Below are positions 17,447 through 53,310 of a stretch of 64,000 nucleotides of DNA, in pieces. Origin of the DNA: Thermoplasmatota archaeon (lineage in GTDB: Archaea; Thermoplasmatota; Thermoplasmata; UBA10834); the NCBI GenBank assembly GCA_040751795.1, contig JBFMHR010000001.1, positions 337,357-401,356 of the forward strand, in the 5' to 3' direction. How positions within the stretch are numbered: the first letter of the stretch is position 1; each line of letters opens with the position of its first letter. Made by a program: the position numbers and the translations under genes. The notes below the pieces were generated by a model. That model was not told the DNA's origin. It made no database searches and saw only the letters and a program-made list of their open reading frames with translations.

Positions 17447-17522
17447 GGGCCCATGGTCTAGTGGCTATGACATCTGCTTGACATGCAGAAGATCGCCGGT
17501 CCGAATCCGGCTGGGCCCACCA
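17447..17522 (+). tRNA. tRNA-Val(GAC): tRNA-Val (anticodon GAC), CCA encoded
   Basis: Hand-folded cloverleaf. Acceptor GGGCCCA/TGGGCCC, anticodon stem TCTGC/GCAGA with loop TTGACAT, T arm GCCGG-TTCGAAT-like-CCGGC, discriminator A, then CCA. Confidence 0.9.
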
Positions 17523-29136: not shown

Positions 29137-29889
29137 GTGAGGTTCAAGAAGCTGAAGGATTTCAACATGGTGATGGGCTTTCTGCACCTGTTCCAGGGCG
29201 CGCTGATGCTGGTGCTGTGGCCGCCCTACGACGCCTCGGTGTACACCCGCTTCTTCGGGGTGGAGGACGGGGCCCCCGTGGTCGTCGAGGACCTGCTTGT
29301 GAAGATCCCGTTCGCGCCGATGGTGGCGTCGTTCCTGTTCGTCTCCGCCATAGCTCACTTCTCGCTGTCGACCTTCGCCAACAGGTGGTACGTCGAGAAC
29401 CTGAGCAAGGGGATGAACCCGGCCAGGTGGCTCGAGTACTCGATAAGCTCGTCGATCATGATCGTGCTGATCGCGTTCCTCGTCGGCATAGACGAGCTGG
29501 CGAGCCTGCTGCTGATCTTCACCCTGAACGCCACCATGAACCTGTTCGGCTGGATGATGGAGCTGCACAACCAGACCACGAAGAGGACCGACTGGACCGC
29601 CTACATATTCGGGTGCATCGCGGGCTTCGTCCCGTGGCTCGTCCTGGGCATCTACTTCTTCGGGGCGATACTGCAGAGCACCGACTCGGTGCCGACCTTC
29701 GTGTACGCGATATTCTTCATCCTGGCGGCGTTCTTCAACGTGTTCGCCATCAACATGGTGCTGCAGTACCGCGCCAAGGGGAGGTGGGCCGACTACCTCT
29801 ACGGCGAGAGGGTGTACATCATCCTCAGCCTGACGGCGAAGTCCGCCCTCGCGTGGCTGGTCTTCGGCGGGACATACAGGTTCACGTGA
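29137..29889 (+). CDS. heliorhodopsin
   Basis: 250 aa, 7 TM. Near-identical blocks to characterised heliorhodopsins: FNMVMGFLHLFQ, RWLEYSISSSIMIVLIA, NATMNLFGW, FGCIAGFVPW, YGERVYIILSLTAKSALAW (Schiff-base Lys). Confidence 0.85.
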   Translation: MRFKKLKDFNMVMGFLHLFQGALMLVLWPPYDASVYTRFFGVEDGAPVVVEDLLVKIPFAPMVASFLFVSAIAHFSLSTFANRWYVENLSKGMNPARWLEYSISSSIMIVLIAFLVGIDELASLLLIFTLNATMNLFGWMMELHNQTTKRTDWTAYIFGCIAGFVPWLVLGIYFFGAILQSTDSVPTFVYAIFFILAAFFNVFAINMVLQYRAKGRWADYLYGERVYIILSLTAKSALAWLVFGGTYRFT

Positions 29890-29944: not shown

Positions 29945-30730
29945 TTGGACGCCCACGCCGCTGCAGGTGCGATGGCCTGGACGCAGAAGGAGATGGACCG
30001 GCAGCTGTCGAGGCAGTCCATGTGGCTCAGGGAGTCCTGGATGTGGCTCCTGGAGCAGAGGGTACTCAAGGGTTGGAGGGGCCACCACAGGCCGACGGCC
30101 CTGGACGTGGGCTGCGGGCCCGGACACGTGATGGAGGCGCTGTGGGAGCTCCTGGACGTCCACGGCCTGGACATCGACCCCGCCGCCGTCGAGGAGGCCA
30201 AGGGGAGGGGCCTGGACGCGAGGGAGGGGGACGCGCACTCGTTGCCGTATGCGGACGGCTCATTCGACATCGTGTACTGCTCGTTCCTGCTACTCTGGGT
30301 GAAGGGACCGGCCAAGGCCCTGTCCGAGATGGCCCGCGTCTCCAGGGACTGGGTCGTGTGCCTTGCCGAGCCGGACCTCGGGGCCAGGATCGACTACCCC
30401 GAGGAGCTCGCGCCCGTCGCCAGGATGGTCGCGGACGGTGTCAGGGCGGAGGGCGGGGACCCCCTCATGGGGCGGAAGCTGAGGTCGGTGTTCCGGTCGG
30501 CTGGCCTGGACGCCGACATAGGGGTGCACCCCGGAGTCTGGGGGGTCGAGAAGCTGAGGGAGGAGTCCGAGGCGGAGTGGAGGTACCTTGAGCTCACGGC
30601 CGGCGACGCGGGGAGTTCCGAGGCGCTCGCCCGGCTGAGGCCCGTGTGGGACCGCGCGGTCCGCGACGGGACCCTATTCCAGCACAGCCCTGTGTTCTAC
30701 GCGTTCGCAAGGAAGCCGTCACATGGATGA
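29945..30730 (+). CDS. class I SAM-dependent methyltransferase
   Basis: LDVGCGPG motif I. The start may be M10 (29972). Confidence 0.75.
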   Translation: MDAHAAAGAMAWTQKEMDRQLSRQSMWLRESWMWLLEQRVLKGWRGHHRPTALDVGCGPGHVMEALWELLDVHGLDIDPAAVEEAKGRGLDAREGDAHSLPYADGSFDIVYCSFLLLWVKGPAKALSEMARVSRDWVVCLAEPDLGARIDYPEELAPVARMVADGVRAEGGDPLMGRKLRSVFRSAGLDADIGVHPGVWGVEKLREESEAEWRYLELTAGDAGSSEALARLRPVWDRAVRDGTLFQHSPVFYAFARKPSHG

Positions 30731-32071
30731 GTGCCTGTCGAGGCACACGTAGTCCCCGTGCTGGGCCGACAGCGGGCACCCGCCCCCGCAGAGCTGCAGC
30801 ATCTCGCACTTCCCGCACCTCTCGTCGACGTACTCCCTCCTCCTGATCCGCTCGCAGAGGGGGTGGGACCAGATCTTTTTCCAGTCGTCCCTCAGGACGT
30901 TGCCCAGGGGCTCGTAGTAGCTCTGGCACGGGATGACCGTCCCGTCAGGCTCGACGGCCATGTTGATGGAGCACGCGGTGCACTGCTTGATGCCCAGGCC
31001 CATGTTGACGGGGTTGAGCTCGCAGTAGGGCGTCGGCGAGTACCAGATGAGCCTCGTCCCTGTCTCGGATGCGACGTCCTTCAGGTCCTCGAGGAGGTCG
31101 GCCAGCTCCTGGAAGGTGACGCCCTCCGCCTCCGTCCCCTTGCCCGAGCGGATGACGCCGTTGAACGCGATGTTCTTCACGCCCAGCCCTGCGACGAACC
31201 TCATCGTATCGACGATCTGCGCGTGGTTGGACCTCATGATCGTCGTGTTGGTGCTGACGTACATGTCCTCGGCTACCGCGGCCTTCAGACCTTCCATGGT
31301 CTCCTTCCACGCCCCCTGCGCCCCGGCGAGCCGGTCGTGCGTGGCGGGGTCGTGCGAGAGCACGGTGACCTGGACGTGGTCCAGGCCCTTGGAAACGAGG
31401 GAACGGAGGTAGCCCGGCCTGCCCAGGGTCCTGCCGTTGGTGACGAGGCCCGTGACCTGCCCGTGGTGCTCCGAGCGCTCCACGAGCTCCTCGAGGCCTT
31501 CGTACAGGGTCGGCTCCCCGCCCGTGAACACGATGTGCGGCACCCCGACATCCCAGAGCCTGTCTATGATCGACTTCCACTCGGCGACGGAGAGCTCGGC
31601 CTTCTCCTTCGTCGCGTTGTAGCAGTGGCCGCACTCGTTCTGGCACCTGTATGTCAGTGCGAGGTCCATCCTGTAGGGGGAGGGCACGTTGTCCGCGCCC
31701 ACCGTCCGGGAGTCGGGGCCCATGACGTCCATGACCGTCTCCTCGCCGTGGACGAACCTCACGAGCCTCTCCCTCGTGGCTGCGAAGTCCTCCCTGGCCT
31801 CCGCCTTCTTCAGGTGCTTGTACCTGCGCCTCATGTACCTGTAGGCCGCGCCGGCGTCCTTGCCCTCCAGGATGCAGCGCACGTAGTCGAGGGCGGTGCC
31901 GTTCATGAACACGAGCTTCGACGCGTCGACCATCAGGACGCCCCTGCTCTCGGAGTCGACCCTGATGTGGAACCTGTGGTGCGCAAGGTCCCCGGACCCG
32001 TCGAACCTGTACGTCCCGGCCTGCAGCCCCAGATCCTCAGGGGACTGCGCCAGGAGCCTGATCCGCCTCAT
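30719..32071 (-). CDS. radical SAM enzyme with C-terminal SPASM domain and ~110-aa N-terminal extension
   Basis: CQNECGHCYN (CxxxCxxC) and a C-terminal Cys cluster (CTACS...CQSY...CGKCEMLQLCGGGCP). Start is ATG at 32071, overlapping the TGA of the upstream gene (ATGA). The ORF track extends it to 32113. Confidence 0.85.
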   Translation of the reverse strand: MRRIRLLAQSPEDLGLQAGTYRFDGSGDLAHHRFHIRVDSESRGVLMVDASKLVFMNGTALDYVRCILEGKDAGAAYRYMRRRYKHLKKAEAREDFAATRERLVRFVHGEETVMDVMGPDSRTVGADNVPSPYRMDLALTYRCQNECGHCYNATKEKAELSVAEWKSIIDRLWDVGVPHIVFTGGEPTLYEGLEELVERSEHHGQVTGLVTNGRTLGRPGYLRSLVSKGLDHVQVTVLSHDPATHDRLAGAQGAWKETMEGLKAAVAEDMYVSTNTTIMRSNHAQIVDTMRFVAGLGVKNIAFNGVIRSGKGTEAEGVTFQELADLLEDLKDVASETGTRLIWYSPTPYCELNPVNMGLGIKQCTACSINMAVEPDGTVIPCQSYYEPLGNVLRDDWKKIWSHPLCERIRRREYVDERCGKCEMLQLCGGGCPLSAQHGDYVCLDRHSSM

Positions 32072-33738
32072 CTGCCTCCCCCCGCGCAGGCGCACGCGCA
32101 GGCGCATGCGCACGCACAGCCGCCCCCTCCTCCGCCGAAGCCCCCCCTGCCCTTGAGGTAGGAGCCGCCGAGGGCTGAGGACCCGACTGGTATCGGGTTG
32201 GTGCTGCCGGTGACCTCGTTGGCGAGGCCTTTGAAGTTGGTGACGACGTTGTTGCTGGCGTTACGGACGCTCGACGCGTAGCTCGAAGCGAGGCTCTGTG
32301 GCGAAGCGGTGCCCGAGGACGCGGCCCTCCCGAGCGCGTAGTACCTCACCGGCACGTGGACGTATGGGAGCCCCGCGAAGTGGTCCTGCATGCGCCTGTC
32401 GTAGCGCCTGTCCAGCATCATCCACTCGTGCCTGTCCGACAGGGACGAGGCGAACTCCTCCGGGGTGCCCGCCTCCTTCACCTGGCGCCACGCGGCCCTG
32501 CAGATCTCCTCGTAGTAGGTCTTGGTGTGGTCGAAGTCGAAGCCCTCGAGCTTCTTCTCGGTGGCCTTGACGAGCGCGACGAGCGCGTCCCTCAGCTCGT
32601 CGCGGTCCACCCTGCCGTCGAGGTGCACGGCCTGGAGGTACGCGTTCTCGTAGGCGTGCTCCCCCTTCGCAGTGAGCTTGGTGATCGTCATTGGCTTCGC
32701 CTCCGAGTCGATCCTGACCATCCCCTTCTTGGCGAGCCCGAAGAGGATCATGGTGGCGACCATCTCGAGCGGCCTCTCGAGCACCACGGCGGCCTCCACC
32801 GCGGTGAGGTCCCGCCTCGGTCCGGCGCCGACGGTGCCCAGGGAGGGCTTGAAGTAGTCCTTCCTCCTCGCCGCCTTCGACGCCCTGTCTATGACGATCC
32901 CGAGGGTGAATATCCCGCCCATGACCACCACGGGGGCGCAGAGGCAGAGGAGGTCCGCGAACGACATGAGGAGGTCCGAGACCCTGTCCCAGACGGTGAA
33001 CTCCACGTATGAATCGACGTACTCGGAGGGGAACGCCGCCCCGAAGTCGTAGGTCCCCGAGGCCACGTCGGTCGGGTCCACGCCCAGCGCGCTCCACGTC
33101 GCGACCAGGTACCCGAGGTCCACGCCTATGCTGTCCCAGGGCTGCCCCTCGAGGTACAGCGCCTCGGAGGCGTCCGTGAACCCCTCCGGGAAGAACACGC
33201 GGACGGTGAGGTTCCCCACGAAGCCCGTCTGGAAGGAGGGCTCGAACCAGGTCGGCCTCATCGCGATGCCCACGGTGCCATCGGCCAGCTCGTTCTCGTA
33301 GACCATGTGCGGGTTGTTGATGTGGAAGTCGAGGGTGAACGTCGCCCCGCCCGTCTCGCTCACGAGGTCCATGACCTGGGACGTGAACTCCACCGCGACG
33401 CCGACGTCGATGTACGGCGACGCGCGGATCTGCGATGGGGCGTACTCAGTCCCCCCTATCGTGATGACCGCCTCCGCGGTGTCGAGGTCGTACCTGTCGT
33501 TGGGGAGGCCTATGTCCACGCCGTCGAGGTAGCCGTAGTTGGTGAAGAGGAACGAGTAGTCTATGTCTATGCTGCCGTCCTTCAGTATGTGTACGTCCAG
33601 GAACTCGTGCTGCACGAGGAAGCTGTACTCCTGGGCCGATGCGGACGCGGCCTGGATGCCGCTGGACCACGCGGAGGCCGCCATCAGGAGGAGGGCCGCG
33701 GAGGCCACGGAAGCGATCAGCGAGCGACGCCTGTTCAA
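32068..33738 (-). CDS. membrane protein with C-terminal Gly-rich (Cys-Ala)x6 tail; candidate rSAM substrate
   Basis: 556 aa: signal peptide, a ~250-aa exported domain, TM helix LLCLCAPVVVMGGIFTLGIVI, and a ~280-aa cytoplasmic domain ending GRGGFGGGGGGCACACACACACAGGGR. Protein-like composition throughout. Confidence 0.65.
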   Translation of the reverse strand: MNRRRSLIASVASAALLLMAASAWSSGIQAASASAQEYSFLVQHEFLDVHILKDGSIDIDYSFLFTNYGYLDGVDIGLPNDRYDLDTAEAVITIGGTEYAPSQIRASPYIDVGVAVEFTSQVMDLVSETGGATFTLDFHINNPHMVYENELADGTVGIAMRPTWFEPSFQTGFVGNLTVRVFFPEGFTDASEALYLEGQPWDSIGVDLGYLVATWSALGVDPTDVASGTYDFGAAFPSEYVDSYVEFTVWDRVSDLLMSFADLLCLCAPVVVMGGIFTLGIVIDRASKAARRKDYFKPSLGTVGAGPRRDLTAVEAAVVLERPLEMVATMILFGLAKKGMVRIDSEAKPMTITKLTAKGEHAYENAYLQAVHLDGRVDRDELRDALVALVKATEKKLEGFDFDHTKTYYEEICRAAWRQVKEAGTPEEFASSLSDRHEWMMLDRRYDRRMQDHFAGLPYVHVPVRYYALGRAASSGTASPQSLASSYASSVRNASNNVVTNFKGLANEVTGSTNPIPVGSSALGGSYLKGRGGFGGGGGGCACACACACACAGGGR

Positions 33739-33745
33739 GGATGGA

Positions 33746-34141
33746 TCACCACTTCGGGGCTTCCTGGAGGGCGAAGACGACGCCGCAGTACGGGCACTTG
33801 GCCATCAGGCCGCCCTGGACCGCGGTGACGTCCTTGTCGGCTATGGGGGCGCCGCACGACCTGCACACCATGTCCTTGGGGACCATGGTGCCCGAGCCCG
33901 ACATGGAGACGTTGAAGGTCTGCGAGATGAGCTTCGGTTTGGCCGCCTCGATCTTCTCGACCCTGTAGACGTAGTACATCAGCCCGGCGCCGATGAGGAC
34001 CATCGCGAGGCCCGCGACGGCGTTCTCGACGCTCCACGCGATTATGAATATCGCGCCCAGCAGGATGAGGCATATCCCCGCGAATGTGACTAAGGCCCCC
34101 ACTACCTTGTTCATGGCCGTCCCGACGGGGATGATTCCCAT
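33746..34141 (-). CDS. membrane protein with C-terminal zinc ribbon
   Basis: Two TM helices, then CRSCGAPI...CPYCG. Confidence 0.55.
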   Translation of the reverse strand: MGIIPVGTAMNKVVGALVTFAGICLILLGAIFIIAWSVENAVAGLAMVLIGAGLMYYVYRVEKIEAAKPKLISQTFNVSMSGSGTMVPKDMVCRSCGAPIADKDVTAVQGGLMAKCPYCGVVFALQEAPKW

Positions 34142-34197
34142 CGGGCATCATATAACCTTGTCGGGAGAAGCCCCGCCCGGGGCCTCCCCCGAGGCCC

Positions 34198-34716
34198 TCA
34201 CCTCGGGGCTTCCTGGGCTGACCTGAACTGGTCCGACGACTTGGCGATCAGTATGAGCCCGGGTATCCCGAAGAAGAACGCCAGCCCGAATATCGAGCAA
34301 GCGGCACCGAGGACCGCGAGCGGGAACGCCCTCTTCGCAAGCGCCATGAGGCCGCCCATTATGCCGAGGGCGGCGCAGGAGTAGAGCACGACCACCAGGG
34401 CCAGGGCCTCACCCTCGAGGTCCCCGCCGGCCGAGACCATGATGGACGTCAGGACTATGGAGAACACGCTCGCGACGATTGTGAGCACCCCGCCGACGAC
34501 CAGCTGGTCCTTCGACTGCTCCTTCGGCCTCGCCCTGAAGTCGTGGCCGCAGTACTGGCACACGTTCACGTCCCAAGAGATGACCCTGCCGCAGGAGACG
34601 CAGTGCCTCATCCTCGACTCGCCCGGCGTGACCGCCGGCGCCTCGGCCGGCCTGCCGCACATGTTGCAGAACCTCATCCCGGCGGGGTTGTCCGCCCCGC
34701 ACTGAGCGCACTTCAT
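34198..34716 (-). CDS. double zinc-ribbon membrane protein
   Basis: MKCAQCGADNPAGMRFCNMCG plus CVSCGRVISWDVNVCQYCGHDF, then 3-4 TM helices. True start is at 34716; the ORF track extends it to 35721. Confidence 0.6.
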   Translation of the reverse strand: MKCAQCGADNPAGMRFCNMCGRPAEAPAVTPGESRMRHCVSCGRVISWDVNVCQYCGHDFRARPKEQSKDQLVVGGVLTIVASVFSIVLTSIMVSAGGDLEGEALALVVVLYSCAALGIMGGLMALAKRAFPLAVLGAACSIFGLAFFFGIPGLILIAKSSDQFRSAQEAPR

Positions 34717-52412: not shown

Positions 52413-53072
52413 CTAGACCCGCTCGCCCCTATGGTACCCGCACCGCGGGCACATGAGGGAGCCGCGGGGCCATATCATGCCGCACCTGGGACAGGCCACG
52501 CCGAAGCCGCAGCCCTCGCAGAAGCACGTCCCCCGGGCCATCGTCCTGCCGCAGTTGGGGCACTTCTCCGCCGCGGGCGCCCTCGGCTGCGGATCACCCT
52601 CGACGTAGCCCCTCCCTCCGCAGCCGGGGCACACCATGGAGCCCGAGGGGCCGGGGAGGACGCCGAGGCCGCGGCAGGCGGGGCACTTCTCGGTGCCCAG
52701 GCACCTGGGGCACTTGCCGGTGCCCCCGCAGAAGGGGCAGGCGCTCAAGGAGCCCCCTTTGCCCTTCCCCTTGCAGGCGTAGCAGTAGCCGTTGACGCAG
52801 TAGGAGACGGAGCCGTAGGCGAGGATGGATGTGAAGTCGTTGTGGCCGTGTGCGTTTGAGGAGACGCTCCATGTGCACTTTCCCGAGCCGCCGCAGGCTT
52901 TGCAGACGTCGATCCTCCCGAAGCCGTCGCAGACCTTGCACTCGGTCCTGCCGCGGCCTATTATGACCTGGGTGCCGCAGTACATGCAGTGGGCCTTGTC
53001 GAGGTCGGCGGGGAACCTGAGGCTGGAGCCGCACTTGGGGCAGACGGCTGCTATGAGCTCGACCTCGGCCAT
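52413..53072 (-). CDS. cysteine-rich protein with zinc ribbons and DnaJ-type CxxCxGxG repeats
   Basis: Start MAEVELIAAVCPKCG. About 13 CxxC pairs, several as CxxCxGxGK (CKVCDGFG, CKACGGSG, CPFCGGTG, CPGCGGRG). Confidence 0.55.
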   Translation of the reverse strand: MAEVELIAAVCPKCGSSLRFPADLDKAHCMYCGTQVIIGRGRTECKVCDGFGRIDVCKACGGSGKCTWSVSSNAHGHNDFTSILAYGSVSYCVNGYCYACKGKGKGGSLSACPFCGGTGKCPRCLGTEKCPACRGLGVLPGPSGSMVCPGCGGRGYVEGDPQPRAPAAEKCPNCGRTMARGTCFCEGCGFGVACPRCGMIWPRGSLMCPRCGYHRGERV

Positions 53073-53225
53073 CCCCTTCACCCTCAGTTGGGGCGGGATT
53101 GGCGGGACGGTATTATATGGTTTCACGGGGGAGTCCACCCTGCCCTGACGGGAGGGGTGAGGAGAAGGAGGCCGGACGGAAGGGTTATTTATACGGCGAC
53201 AATCATGGGCCCTCGCAACCATCGG

Positions 53226-53310
53226 GCAGGGATAGCCAAGCCTGGCCAACGGCGATAGATTCAGGGTCTATTCGCGAAGGCGTCCGCCGGTTCAAATCCG
53301 GCTCCCTGCA
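53226..53310 (+). tRNA. tRNA-Leu(CAG): tRNA-Leu (anticodon CAG), class II with long variable arm, CCA not encoded
   Basis: Hand-folded: acceptor GCAGGGA/TCCCTGC, D arm GCC-AAGCCTGGCCAAC-GGC, anticodon stem ATAGA/TCTAT with loop TTCAGGG, variable stem CGC-GAAG-GCG, T arm GCCGG-TTCAAAT-CCGGC. Confidence 0.9.

Follow-up and report, generated by a model that had tools for sequence, protein, structure and literature searches.

To our knowledge, almost all products of RRE-dependent radical SAM/SPASM enzymes are small secreted peptides and cofactors. The RRE is an N-terminal PqqD-like winged helix, built of a three-stranded sheet and three helices, which binds a recognition sequence in the substrate. 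The SPASM part of these enzymes is defined by a C-terminal motif of seven cysteines (CX9-15GX4C ... CX2CX5CX3C ... C), which serve two auxiliary clusters. The maturases SkfB, CteB, AlbA and PapB, which cross-link Cys-rich peptides through Cys thioethers, share one architecture of RRE, radical SAM and SPASM/twitch domains; in sacti- and ranthipeptide systems, the substrate is a short leader-core peptide, its Cys-rich C-terminal target is coded directly upstream of the enzyme, and the characterised cores are unlike a strict alternation of Cys and Ala. PapB reportedly acts iteratively on a repeated motif. PqqE/PqqD/PqqA and MftC/MftB/MftA combine RRE/PqqD-type recognition with modification of residues near the C-terminus, the target in MftA lying at the extreme C-terminus, and the Lys-Trp cyclases StrB and SuiB act on streptide precursors, which are short secreted peptides. 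Precedent for SPASM enzymes acting on the Cys of real proteins comes from QhpD/QhpC, QhpC being a small soluble subunit cross-linked to Asp/Glu, and from anSME, which lacks an RRE and requires the sequence C/S-x-P/A-x-R in its substrate.

At the locus described here, machinery of the RRE-radical SAM/SPASM type is apparently coupled to a conserved bitopic membrane protein through its cytoplasmic tail. We propose, at a probability of about 0.6, that four conserved genes, joined in bacteria by a paralog of the enzyme without Fe-S clusters, form a membrane-associated protein-maturation cassette with this tail as its substrate. The window (the whole stretch analysed, 64,000 nt from a Thermoplasmatota archaeon) holds four minus-strand open reading frames at 34716-34198, 34141-33746, 33738-32068 and 32071-30719, separated by intergenic gaps of 56, 7 and -4 nt. 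They encode, in this order, a 172-aa double-zinc-ribbon protein (172 aa inside a longer ORF), a 131-aa small membrane protein (ZR2), the 556-aa bitopic membrane protein, which has a TTG start, and a radical SAM/SPASM enzyme of 450 aa counted from its ATG. This ATG overlaps the stop codon of the tail-protein gene (ATGA), and a plus-strand gene for a 261-aa class I SAM-dependent methyltransferase (29945-30730) is convergent with the enzyme gene, with a 12-nt 3' overlap. The initial annotation had described the four minus-strand genes with their gaps, the ATGA overlap, a mixed-codon (CA)6-GGGR end and an enzyme with CQNECGHC and SPASM cysteines, and each of these was recovered at the same coordinates; the methyltransferase gene and the bacterial cysteine-less paralog were not listed there. 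A 464-aa alternative reading of the enzyme (GTG at 32113), which crosses the Cys-Ala repeat in another frame, is probably spurious.

Hydropathy gives the 556-aa protein a signal or anchor segment at aa 5-25 and a single hydrophobic block at aa 253-286; its parts are a beta-sandwich ectodomain (aa 40-237), a TM segment at about aa 262-286, a cytoplasmic winged-helix plus helical domain (aa 313-452) and further helices (aa 480-513). The tail is placed in the cytoplasm, as had been suggested, because an odd number of TM segments follows the exported domain and the side rich in Lys and Arg comes after the TM segment (6 such residues after vs. 1 before). The C-terminus reads GRGGFGGGGGG-CACACACACACA-GGGR, that is, a flexible Gly-rich linker (aa 530-540; 32119-32151, minus strand), whose composition is kept among members while its sequence varies, followed by the tail itself (aa 541-556; 32071-32118, minus strand), the proposed modification site. 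Linker and tail are predicted to be disordered (pLDDT <50 at aa 517-556 in AF2). The tail is written in the codons TGT GCG TGC GCA TGC GCC TGC GCG TGC GCC TGC GCG GGG GGA GGC AGA TGA, and in the six-frame translation of the window a (CA)>=3 run occurs only once, at 32083-32118, where the chance expectation is ~8e-12.

The prediction that orthologs keep the tail holds for essentially all full-length members, in which it carries the highest per-position information of the protein (3.9 bits, the rest lying at 1-3.3, among 174 members). Columns C545-G555 are invariant in an alignment of 26 diverse members with a mean column identity of 36%; among full-length homologs from Thermoplasmata, Chloroflexota and Bathyarchaeia, nearly all end in (CA)n...GGGR, as do 128 of 138 further representatives, the remaining 10 being truncated fragments. 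The terminus is GGGR in 166/173 members, and the number of Cys per core ranges from 3 to 10, a variability more readily explained by a repeat that is modified iteratively than by a fixed metal site. A metagenome sample scanned for DNA coding CACACAGGGR and a stop yielded 127 tails; compared with the family after removal of the tail, all ORFs that were intact (no contig-end cut, no frameshift) were members of the tail-protein family. At 50% identity, the family divides into at least 1367 clusters, and at least 366 species genomes have a member. These include Methanomassiliicoccales among other Thermoplasmata, as well as Bathyarchaeia, Chloroflexota and a number of candidate phyla.

The enzyme (30719-32071) matches Pfam Radical_SAM (PF04055; E 3e-22, 80 bits vs. 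a cut-off of 29.5) and, at aa 364-423, Pfam SPASM (PF13186; E 8e-10, 39 bits vs. a cut-off of 21.5). It belongs to the radical SAM superfamily, whose CX3CX2C motif carries the SAM-cleaving [4Fe-4S] cluster inside a partial TIM barrel, by the motif CQNECGHC (C143/C147/C150; 31622-31645, minus strand), which is 100% kept in 65 orthologs and missing from 32 pseudo-paralogs, and by a barrel fold that matches many radical SAM structures. Among its auxiliary-cluster cysteines (30743-31024, minus strand), C350 (94%), C364, C382, C419, C422, C428 and C432 are universal, so that the SPASM patterns C364-x12-G-x4-C382 and C419-x2-C422-x5-C428-x3-C432 are present throughout; C367 and C443 are mainly archaeal, and C443, the last Cys, is kept in only 28% of orthologs. 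An AF2 model (pTM 0.78) is aligned by Foldseek with SkfB, SuiB and CteB over 410-462 columns, in each case along its whole length, and the radical SAM core and the SPASM part also match anSME structures in fold. SkfB is the best match by both sequence and fold (top PDB sequence match in phmmer at 1.4e-18, followed by PqqE at 7e-18).

Upstream of the core lies an N-terminal domain (aa ~15-110; 31742-32029, minus strand) for which AF2 predicts four strands followed by three helices (aa 19-107, pLDDT 71-93). This ~110-aa extension does look like the RRE that had been suggested, in its predicted fold and in the full-length superposition of the model on RRE-bearing maturases, and is a putative peptide-binding domain. 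No Pfam PqqD match to the region was found at E up to 1; in the cysteine-less paralog, the equivalent region matches the model of the lasso-peptide PqqD chaperone (E 8e-4, under the cut-off), and the motif HLR..G.G.L..NA....HLN.TA is common to true enzymes and cysteine-less paralogs.

No chemistry can be transferred to the enzyme by homology, because it scores under the cut-off of every NCBIfam family. Membership in the curated sacti- and ranthipeptide maturase families was rejected on scores of 78.5 bits vs. 300 for SkfB, 83 vs. 625 for StsB and 69 vs. 850 for AlbA. The top NCBIfam match is PqqE (TIGR02109), at 125 bits vs. a cut-off of 381; this identity was discarded as well: around the enzyme lie the genes for tail protein, zinc-ribbon protein and methyltransferase, neither PqqA/B/C nor Mft genes occur nearby, and the label "PqqE" on some database entries for the enzyme is a misannotation. 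Identity with anSME was likewise set aside: the tail has no Cys four residues before its Arg, and the enzyme has an extra N-terminal domain.

ZR2 (33746-34141, minus strand) has two TM helices followed by a cytoplasmic zinc ribbon (CRSC...CPYC) and ends in ...EAPKW; among its orthologs, a PKW terminus is found in 77/78 and CxxC...CxxC in 77/78, the family end being given as an invariant ...EEPKW. A ZR2 homolog stands directly upstream of the tail gene at 78/80 genome loci and at 60/64 metagenome loci with enough upstream DNA. The 172-aa protein (34716-34198, minus strand) has a double zinc ribbon (DZR, E 1.5e-10) and three TM helices; its gene is present in a 96%-identical relative only, missing from an 81%-identical one, and was found in 0/204 loci compared. 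Thus, although the genes and gaps of the four-gene operon drawn in the initial annotation stand, that operon is not the conserved unit; the 172-aa gene, considered as part of the system, was rejected as a lineage-specific insertion. The conserved unit is the 131-aa zinc-ribbon protein, the tail protein, the radical SAM enzyme and the class I methyltransferase.

The methyltransferase is assigned to class I (Rossmann-fold, SAM-binding) and matches Pfam Methyltransf_11 (E 7e-20, 72 bits vs. 21.2) and Methyltransf_25 (62 bits vs. 27); its best NCBIfam model, the DVU_1556 family, gives 56 bits vs. a cut-off of 155 and hence no equivalog membership, and its closest solved structure, LahSB (E 1.2e-8), matches over the Rossmann core only. 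A homolog is present in the flanking DNA retrieved for 51/80 genome loci and at 31/46 metagenome loci having at least 4 kb downstream, the gene being convergent in archaea and co-directional in Chloroflexota. Bacterial cassettes keep, in addition, a paralog of the enzyme without CX3CX2C and without any SPASM Cys, in which the SPASM segment is entirely lost and the RRE-like domain retained. It resembles the dead radical SAM proteins of TIGR04347 (pseudo-SAM/SPASM) but scores only 39 bits vs. a cut-off of 525. In one protein (P0353), such a paralog is fused to a tail protein, a possible Rosetta-stone fusion that would favour the proposed relation.

Co-occurrence of the enzyme's homologs with a tail-bearing partner was seen in both search directions. 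Of 73 genome loci whose downstream DNA is long enough, ~66 have a true radical SAM enzyme with CX3CX2C, in most cases as the next gene after the tail gene, and this order is seen in Thermoplasmata, Bathyarchaeia, Chloroflexota and further phyla; an independent, tail-seeded metagenome sample has it adjacent at 57/84 and within the locus at 73/84; and look-ups seeded with the enzyme all give the same cassette with the 4-nt overlap. This synteny is repeated in more than 150 loci, and one locus (L146) has the same gene set despite rearrangement. Tail conservation, co-occurrence and topology were each conditions on which the initial annotation let its idea stand or fall, and none of them refuted it. 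A point against it is that some loci with 4-8 kb of downstream DNA keep the tail with no such enzyme nearby, namely L024, L025, L039 and L074 and several tandem-paralog loci of the metagenome sample, e.g., L085, L091, L094 and L129. The cassette, which archaea and bacteria share, lies among housekeeping genes, and no recurring peptidase, protease, transporter or exporter, or further tailoring gene was found in the cassette; a cassette with neither protease nor exporter is consistent with modification of a protein.

Set beside the described systems, the cassette resembles those of sacti- and ranthipeptides in gene order and enzyme architecture, and its repeated target recalls PapB; it differs from them in that what is presumably modified here is the tail of a bitopic membrane protein of ~550 aa, in lacking a leader peptidase or exporter, and in its strictly alternating core. 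A PQQ- or mycofactocin-like pathway differs in the same way, since the substrate here would be a membrane protein and the cassette has no peptidase, and the QhpD/QhpC and anSME systems are without the repeat tail, the zinc-ribbon partner or the methyltransferase. SuiB aligns over the whole length of the enzyme, at an identity of only 16%, and Lys-Trp, the pair linked by such cyclases, is also the invariant end of ZR2.

From gene neighbourhood and architecture we infer that the tail is the substrate of the radical SAM enzyme. The tail protein would insert with its beta-sandwich domain outside the cell and its C-terminal half inside, where the flexible Gly-rich linker would offer the (Cys-Ala)n-GGGR end to the cytoplasmic enzyme. 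The enzyme would dock through its RRE-like domain; the probable docking site is a conserved helical/TNP-P segment that precedes the tail by about 25-75 residues and would serve as a built-in leader. It would modify the repeat iteratively by 5'-deoxyadenosyl radical chemistry supported by the SPASM clusters. Sacti- and ranthipeptide synthases are defined by making Cys S-to-C(alpha/beta/gamma) thioether bonds in a cognate precursor, and the enzyme resembles them through its best PDB matches, SkfB and CteB. Cross-links from Cys sulfur to the carbon of neighbouring Ala or Gly would be the most likely chemistry; thioether formation is nevertheless put forward as a leading guess only, by analogy with these two enzymes, and the formylglycine or dehydro products that the initial annotation also named would be conjectural as well. 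A counterpoint is that the alternating core gives only Ala and Gly as acceptors. The methyltransferase might then cap or decorate the product, and the cysteine-less paralog might act as a substrate-holding partner. Docking site, type of chemistry and methyltransferase role are all parts of the model that we infer.

The tail might instead remain unmodified and serve as an element for redox chemistry or for binding a metal, Fe-S or persulfide, while the enzyme, as part of the same membrane module, acts on some other target, such as a lipid, cofactor or different protein. The Cys-X-Cys repeat is a classic source of thiolate ligands for metals, and the metallothionein-like spacing, the cytoplasmic position behind a flexible linker, the zinc ribbon of the partner protein and the few loci with a tail and no nearby enzyme all suit such an element; the spread of 3-10 Cys among orthologs, however, is awkward for a defined cluster, and a peptide-maturase architecture with an RRE-like domain, the catalytically dead RRE-bearing paralog kept by bacteria and the conserved stop-start overlap between tail and enzyme genes speak for the tail as substrate, so that we regard a purely metal-binding tail as unlikely. 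ZR2 raises a counterpoint of its own, since its invariant EEPKW end could be the substrate or a second one, carrying a StrB/SuiB-like Lys-Trp link or a staple from tail Cys to Lys/Trp that joins both proteins. The near-universal PKW terminus, a linkage of ZR2 to the cassette as tight as that of the enzyme, the place of SuiB among the best structural matches and the presence in bacteria of two RRE-bearing proteins, each of which could hold one substrate, favour this; yet translational coupling ties the enzyme gene to the tail gene rather than to the zinc-ribbon gene, the tail is more conserved and more repetitive, and we know of no inter-protein cross-link made by a radical SAM/SPASM enzyme, which counts against the staple. 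Modification of the EEPKW end therefore seems to us quite unlikely.

Cleavage of a modified (CA)n-GGGR end from a tail protein that is only its scaffold, giving a small sulfur-rich peptide or cofactor as PqqA gives PQQ and MftA gives mycofactocin, would agree with the target at the extreme C-terminus, the accompanying methyltransferase and the rank of PqqE as nearest NCBIfam model and second among solved structures. It is, however, very improbable: the PqqE score falls far under its cut-off, peptidase, transporter and further tailoring genes do not recur in the cassette, and a 550-aa bitopic protein with conserved ecto- and cytoplasmic domains would be an implausibly costly single-turnover precursor. 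GC-rich genomes are rich in simple repeats, and TGCGC-type repeats could arise by slippage, but the idea of a low-complexity artefact beside accidentally adjacent genes is already refuted by the conservation data, namely a tail that does not vary between phyla of two domains of life and the repeated synteny, and by the mixed synonymous codons of a run that is the only one of its kind in the window.

Across hundreds of archaeal and bacterial species, the tail protein almost always has these gene neighbours, and this points to a protein-modification system not described before. Neither a Pfam or NCBIfam model nor a paper in the searchable literature covers the cassette, in agreement with the initial annotation, in which the arrangement had not been recognised as a known system. 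It is possible, if doubtful, that this is a widespread and hitherto unrecognised post-translational modification system acting on a full-size membrane protein in Archaea and Bacteria, which would turn the tail into a new kind of structure at the functional heart of a housekeeping membrane complex. The structure could be a poly-thioether ladder, a sulfur-rich rod that is alternating D/L or otherwise rigidified, or a covalent staple to the EEPKW end of the zinc-ribbon partner. If the tail is the substrate, the cassette would define a novel class of protein modification in which a real protein incorporates the logic of RiPPs; it would supply a simple, repetitive and easily synthesised substrate for mechanistic work, and a first handle on a membrane module (ectodomain, zinc-ribbon partner, methyltransferase and dead paralog) that is currently annotated as "hypothetical" or mislabelled "PqqE".

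In its layout of beta-sandwich ectodomain, TM segment and Gly-rich C-terminal tail, the 556-aa protein is similar to DUF2207-type proteins, in which Gly-rich C-terminal regions are common, and one member from Bathyarchaeia (P0109) bears the DUF2207 name in NCBI as given by the source. Membership in DUF2207 (PF09972) was rejected: none of the Pfam models, that of DUF2207 among them, matches any of 26 diverse members at E up to 0.01. Unlike DUF2207 proteins, the tail-protein family is specifically marked by its (CA)n-GGGR end and its linkage to a radical SAM enzyme.

The 556-aa membrane protein encoded at positions 33738-32068 (minus strand, TTG start) ends in ...GRGGFGGGGGG-CACACACACACA-GGGR, a (Cys-Ala)n tail (CA tail) written in mixed codons (TGT/TGC and GCG/GCA/GCC), and its TGA stop is overlapped by the ATG of a 450-aa enzyme (rSAM; 32071-30719, minus strand) with Pfam matches to Radical_SAM and SPASM. 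Upstream on the same strand lie the genes of a 131-aa zinc-ribbon partner (34141-33746) and of a 172-aa protein (34716-34198) with a Pfam double zinc ribbon and three TM helices; the gaps between these four open reading frames (ORFs) are 56, 7, and −4 nt. The initial annotation had read the four genes as one operon, and the ORF calls reproduce its layout and gaps, as well as the mixed-codon tail, the ATG/TGA overlap, and the domain assignments of the rSAM and the 172-aa protein. What did not survive is the inclusion of the 172-aa gene in the system: such a gene is carried by 0 of 204 compared loci (0 of 80 genome loci). It was seen only in a 96%-identical relative (L205) and is missing from an 81%-identical relative (L207), a distribution that marks it as a recent insertion, confined to this lineage, that separates the DHH/RecJ-like gene from the cassette, by which we mean the 131-aa partner, the tail protein, the rSAM, and a class I methyltransferase (29945-30730, plus strand).

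A word-indexed search recovered 112 homologs of the tail protein from Thermoplasmata/Methanomassiliicoccales, Anaerolineae, and Bathyarchaeia, and virtually every full-length homolog bears the (CA)n...GGGR end. The tails take the form CACACACACA-GGGR in archaea, CACACACAGCACACA-GGGR in Chloroflexota, and CVCACASCACACACASCACACA-SGGAG in Bathyarchaeia; cores contain 3-10 Cys, and the GGGR end is present in 166 of 173. C545 to G555 are among the invariant columns of a 26-member alignment with a mean column identity of 36%, and over 174 members the tail holds 3.9 bits per position, followed by the winged-helix motif GLTAVEAA.LLE.PL..V.TMILFGL.KKG (2.9-3.3 bits) and the remainder of the protein (1-2.6 bits). 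When 1.84 billion representatives were searched with a profile, 1367 tail-protein clusters passed E ≤ 1e-3 and 427 passed E ≤ 1e-30; the CA tail is on 128 of 138 new representatives, the other 10 being C-terminally truncated fragments. In the converse test, metagenome contigs were scanned for DNA encoding CACACAGGGR-stop, giving 127 tails; all ORFs uncut by a contig end or frameshift match the tail-protein family even when a tail-less query is used, and in this metagenome sample the CA tail is exclusive to that family.

The AF2 model of the tail protein (pLDDT 79) begins with a signal/anchor helix and a beta-sandwich predicted with confidence (aa 40-237). Past the TM helix come a domain made of a winged helix and further helices (aa 313-452) and a pair of helices (aa 480-513), and everything from aa 517 onward is disordered. 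Six K/R residues follow the TM helix and one precedes it; hydropathy and this charge distribution together predict that the C-terminal half is cytoplasmic. In those bacterial variants whose hydrophobic block is longer there appear to be three TM helices, still an odd number. Some representatives (P0233, P0235, P0238, P0246, and P0250; 766-838 aa) have the beta-sandwich ectodomain duplicated ahead of the normal architecture. Neither the tail protein nor the 131-aa partner, in archaeal or bacterial version, belongs to a Pfam or NCBIfam family, and comparison of the two halves of the tail protein with Pfam at E up to 1 returned nothing meaningful.

Relatives were present in at least 366 genomes of a one-genome-per-species scan, from which 80 loci were kept and their neighbours scored by targeted tblastn with the proteins of the window. 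The 131-aa zinc-ribbon protein is directly upstream of the tail gene in 78 of the 80 loci, a true rSAM (with CX3CX2C) is found in ~66 of 73 with enough downstream DNA, mostly beginning right after the tail gene, and the methyltransferase is found in 51 of 80. Among the phyla represented are Methanomassiliicoccales, other Thermoplasmatota, Chloroflexota, Zixibacteria, Cloacimonadota, Fermentibacteria, Aminicenantes, Acidobacteriota, and contigs labelled delta proteobacteria. In an independent, tail-seeded metagenome sample, among 84 tails with at least 1.7 kb downstream the rSAM is adjacent in 57 and within the locus in 73, the zinc-ribbon partner accompanies 60 of 64 tails with enough upstream DNA, and the methyltransferase accompanies 31 of 46 with at least 4 kb downstream. 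When the look-up was seeded with rSAM homologs of 58-96% identity, one identical layout was returned every time (a 122/131-aa gene, a 549-554-aa gene, a 450-aa rSAM overlapping it by 4 nt, and a methyltransferase in convergent orientation), including an 81%-identical relative on a contig labelled Thermoplasmata with synteny as in the window. The order in Chloroflexota (locus L045) is zinc-ribbon protein, tail protein, rSAM, a second rSAM-like gene, and methyltransferase, and in L146 the set is kept in changed order with two tandem tail genes. Conservation of the tail in orthologs, its cytoplasmic placement, and co-occurrence of rSAM homologs with a CA-tailed partner had been named beforehand as tests of the proposal that the tail is an rSAM substrate, and none of the three refuted it, co-occurrence being seen in both the tail-seeded and the rSAM-seeded direction.

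Tandem gene pairs characterize a subfamily found at L085, L091, L094, L115, L146, L162, and L175, whose members (620-720 aa, about three TM helices) have the tail CACACAGCACACACAGGGR, preceded by "GDIF.AL" and not "TNPPP"; at these loci the rSAM is often non-adjacent and the methyltransferase adjacent.

The rSAM belongs to the radical SAM superfamily and the SPASM subfamily; membership of PqqE, of a curated sactisynthase family, or of anSME was rejected. It reaches the cut-off of no NCBIfam rSAM family (best PqqE, 125 bits vs. 381) and falls far short of those of the SkfB, StsB, AlbA, mycofactocin, NirJ, and AhbD models; some database entries are mislabelled PqqE. The nearest solved sequences are SkfB (1.4e-18) and PqqE (7e-18). 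The AF2 model (pLDDT 77, pTM 0.78) places four strands and three helices in an N-terminal module (aa 19-107) that precedes the barrel and the SPASM region. Foldseek aligned it along its full length (410-462 columns) to SkfB, SuiB, and CteB, all of which are peptide maturases bearing a RiPP recognition element (RRE). The isolated N-terminal 110 aa gave nothing meaningful against Pfam at E up to 1; they contain the motif ...HLN.TA......LEG, which resembles the PqqD signature. Across 65 orthologs C143/C147/C150 and C350, C364, C382, C419, C422, C428, and C432 are conserved, and C443 is retained in just 28%, so that in most orthologs one auxiliary cluster may be ligated by no more than three Cys. 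Many database entries are 464-466 aa, 14-16 residues longer; their extension, MRMRLRVRLRGGRQ (32071-32113, minus strand), is the CA-repeat DNA in another frame, so the longer starts are probably mis-called.

Bacterial cassettes contain, in addition, a cysteine-less rSAM paralog, found at L045 (11057-12226, plus strand) and at 32 further bacterial loci; archaeal cassettes are without it. All 32 paralogs examined are devoid of the conserved Cys (including CX3CX2C) and of the SPASM segment and keep the RRE-like N-terminal domain, which shares the ...HLN.TA......LEG motif with the rSAM and weakly matches the lasso-peptide PqqD model (E 8e-4). Assignment to the TIGR04347 pseudo-SAM family was rejected, the score being far under the cut-off. 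In one representative, P0353 (948 aa), such a paralog seems to be joined to the N-terminus of a complete tail protein, from signal-anchor through ectodomain, TMs, and cytoplasmic domain to the CA tail. The order makes topological sense; P0353 could be a Rosetta-stone fusion, but it could also have arisen as an artefact of gene calling.

The 131-aa partner has two TM helices, a cytoplasmic CxxC...CPYC ribbon, and an extreme C-terminus, ...E(E/A)PKW, that is invariant in 77 of 78 orthologs (L001-L080); two of the cassette's proteins thus have invariant C-termini, and that of the 131-aa partner may be a further substrate or take part in a cross-link. Pfam identifies the methyltransferase as a generic class I enzyme; its score is far below the cut-off of the DVU_1556 methyltransferase family, an assignment that was rejected. 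Its closest solved relative (E 1.2e-8, Rossmann core only) is LahSB, a C-terminal carboxyl methyltransferase of lanthipeptides (PMC11285071), a likeness to be taken as a weak lead and not as evidence.

Whatever goes beyond gene content, conservation, fold, and topology we infer, and the best-supported reading, to which we assign a probability of roughly 60%, is that the neighbouring rSAM, a SPASM enzyme with a putative RRE, takes the cytoplasmic (CA)n-GGGR tail as its substrate. A built-in leader would be supplied by the conserved segment (helices at aa 480-513 and the VT..TNP.P motif) that precedes the Gly-rich linker, and accessory roles would fall to the methyltransferase and, in bacteria, to the dead paralog. 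A repeat number that varies is in keeping with iterative modification. For the chemistry, thioether formation is the leading guess, given that SkfB and CteB come closest among structural relatives and that only Cys offers a reactive side chain; it is put forward tentatively, with about half the weight of the reading as a whole; epimerisation, Cys oxidation, or an inter-protein link may occur instead. Loci L024, L025, L039, and L074 have an intact CA tail and no true rSAM within 4-8 kb of downstream DNA, the dead paralog being the only rSAM-type gene in view at L074; a tail that stays unmodified and binds metal or acts in redox is nevertheless unlikely. Slightly less likely again is that the partner's EEPKW end is the substrate or cross-link partner, and it is improbable that the tail protein is a scaffold from which a small product is released. 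That the tail or the cassette is an artefact has a negligible probability: the initial annotation had argued from the mixed codons that the repeat is no DNA artefact, and in a window of ~66% GC only one (CA)≥3 run occurs in any frame, against a chance expectation of ~8e-12.

Reading the CA tail as the substrate makes the proposed mode of action resemble Cys modification of the sacti/ranthipeptide or QhpD type. It departs from those systems in several respects. The substrate would be a large membrane protein whose core repeats Cys-Ala strictly. The cassette adds a zinc-ribbon partner, a methyltransferase, and a dead paralog, is without a peptidase or exporter, and spans both prokaryotic domains beside housekeeping genes. 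Queries on the CA tail and cassette in literature outside subscription journals returned only DNA primers or unrelated papers, and no family model covers the tail protein or partner; within that scope the earlier view that the arrangement is not a described system stands. The cassette is a widespread unannotated module, and the substrate hypothesis is sharp and cheap to test.

Around the cassette, the window encodes housekeeping functions of archaeal type: Kae1/TsaD, ribosomal protein S15, a DHH/DHHA1 RecJ-like protein, and a Nudix protein. A heliorhodopsin gene (29137-29889, plus strand; PF18761, E 2.6e-94) between Kae1/TsaD and the methyltransferase was rejected as a cassette member because its synteny is limited to close relatives; it is syntenic in the close Thermoplasmata relative L207 and missing from the other 204 loci. 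A scan for sigma-70 promoters and terminators was set aside as uninformative for an archaeon. Elsewhere, a 278-aa protein (52413-53249, minus strand) adjoining an integrase has many CxxC pairs, forming multiple zinc ribbons (DZR match, E 1e-6), and the single tRNA gene (17447-17519, plus strand) is the sole Rfam match in the window.
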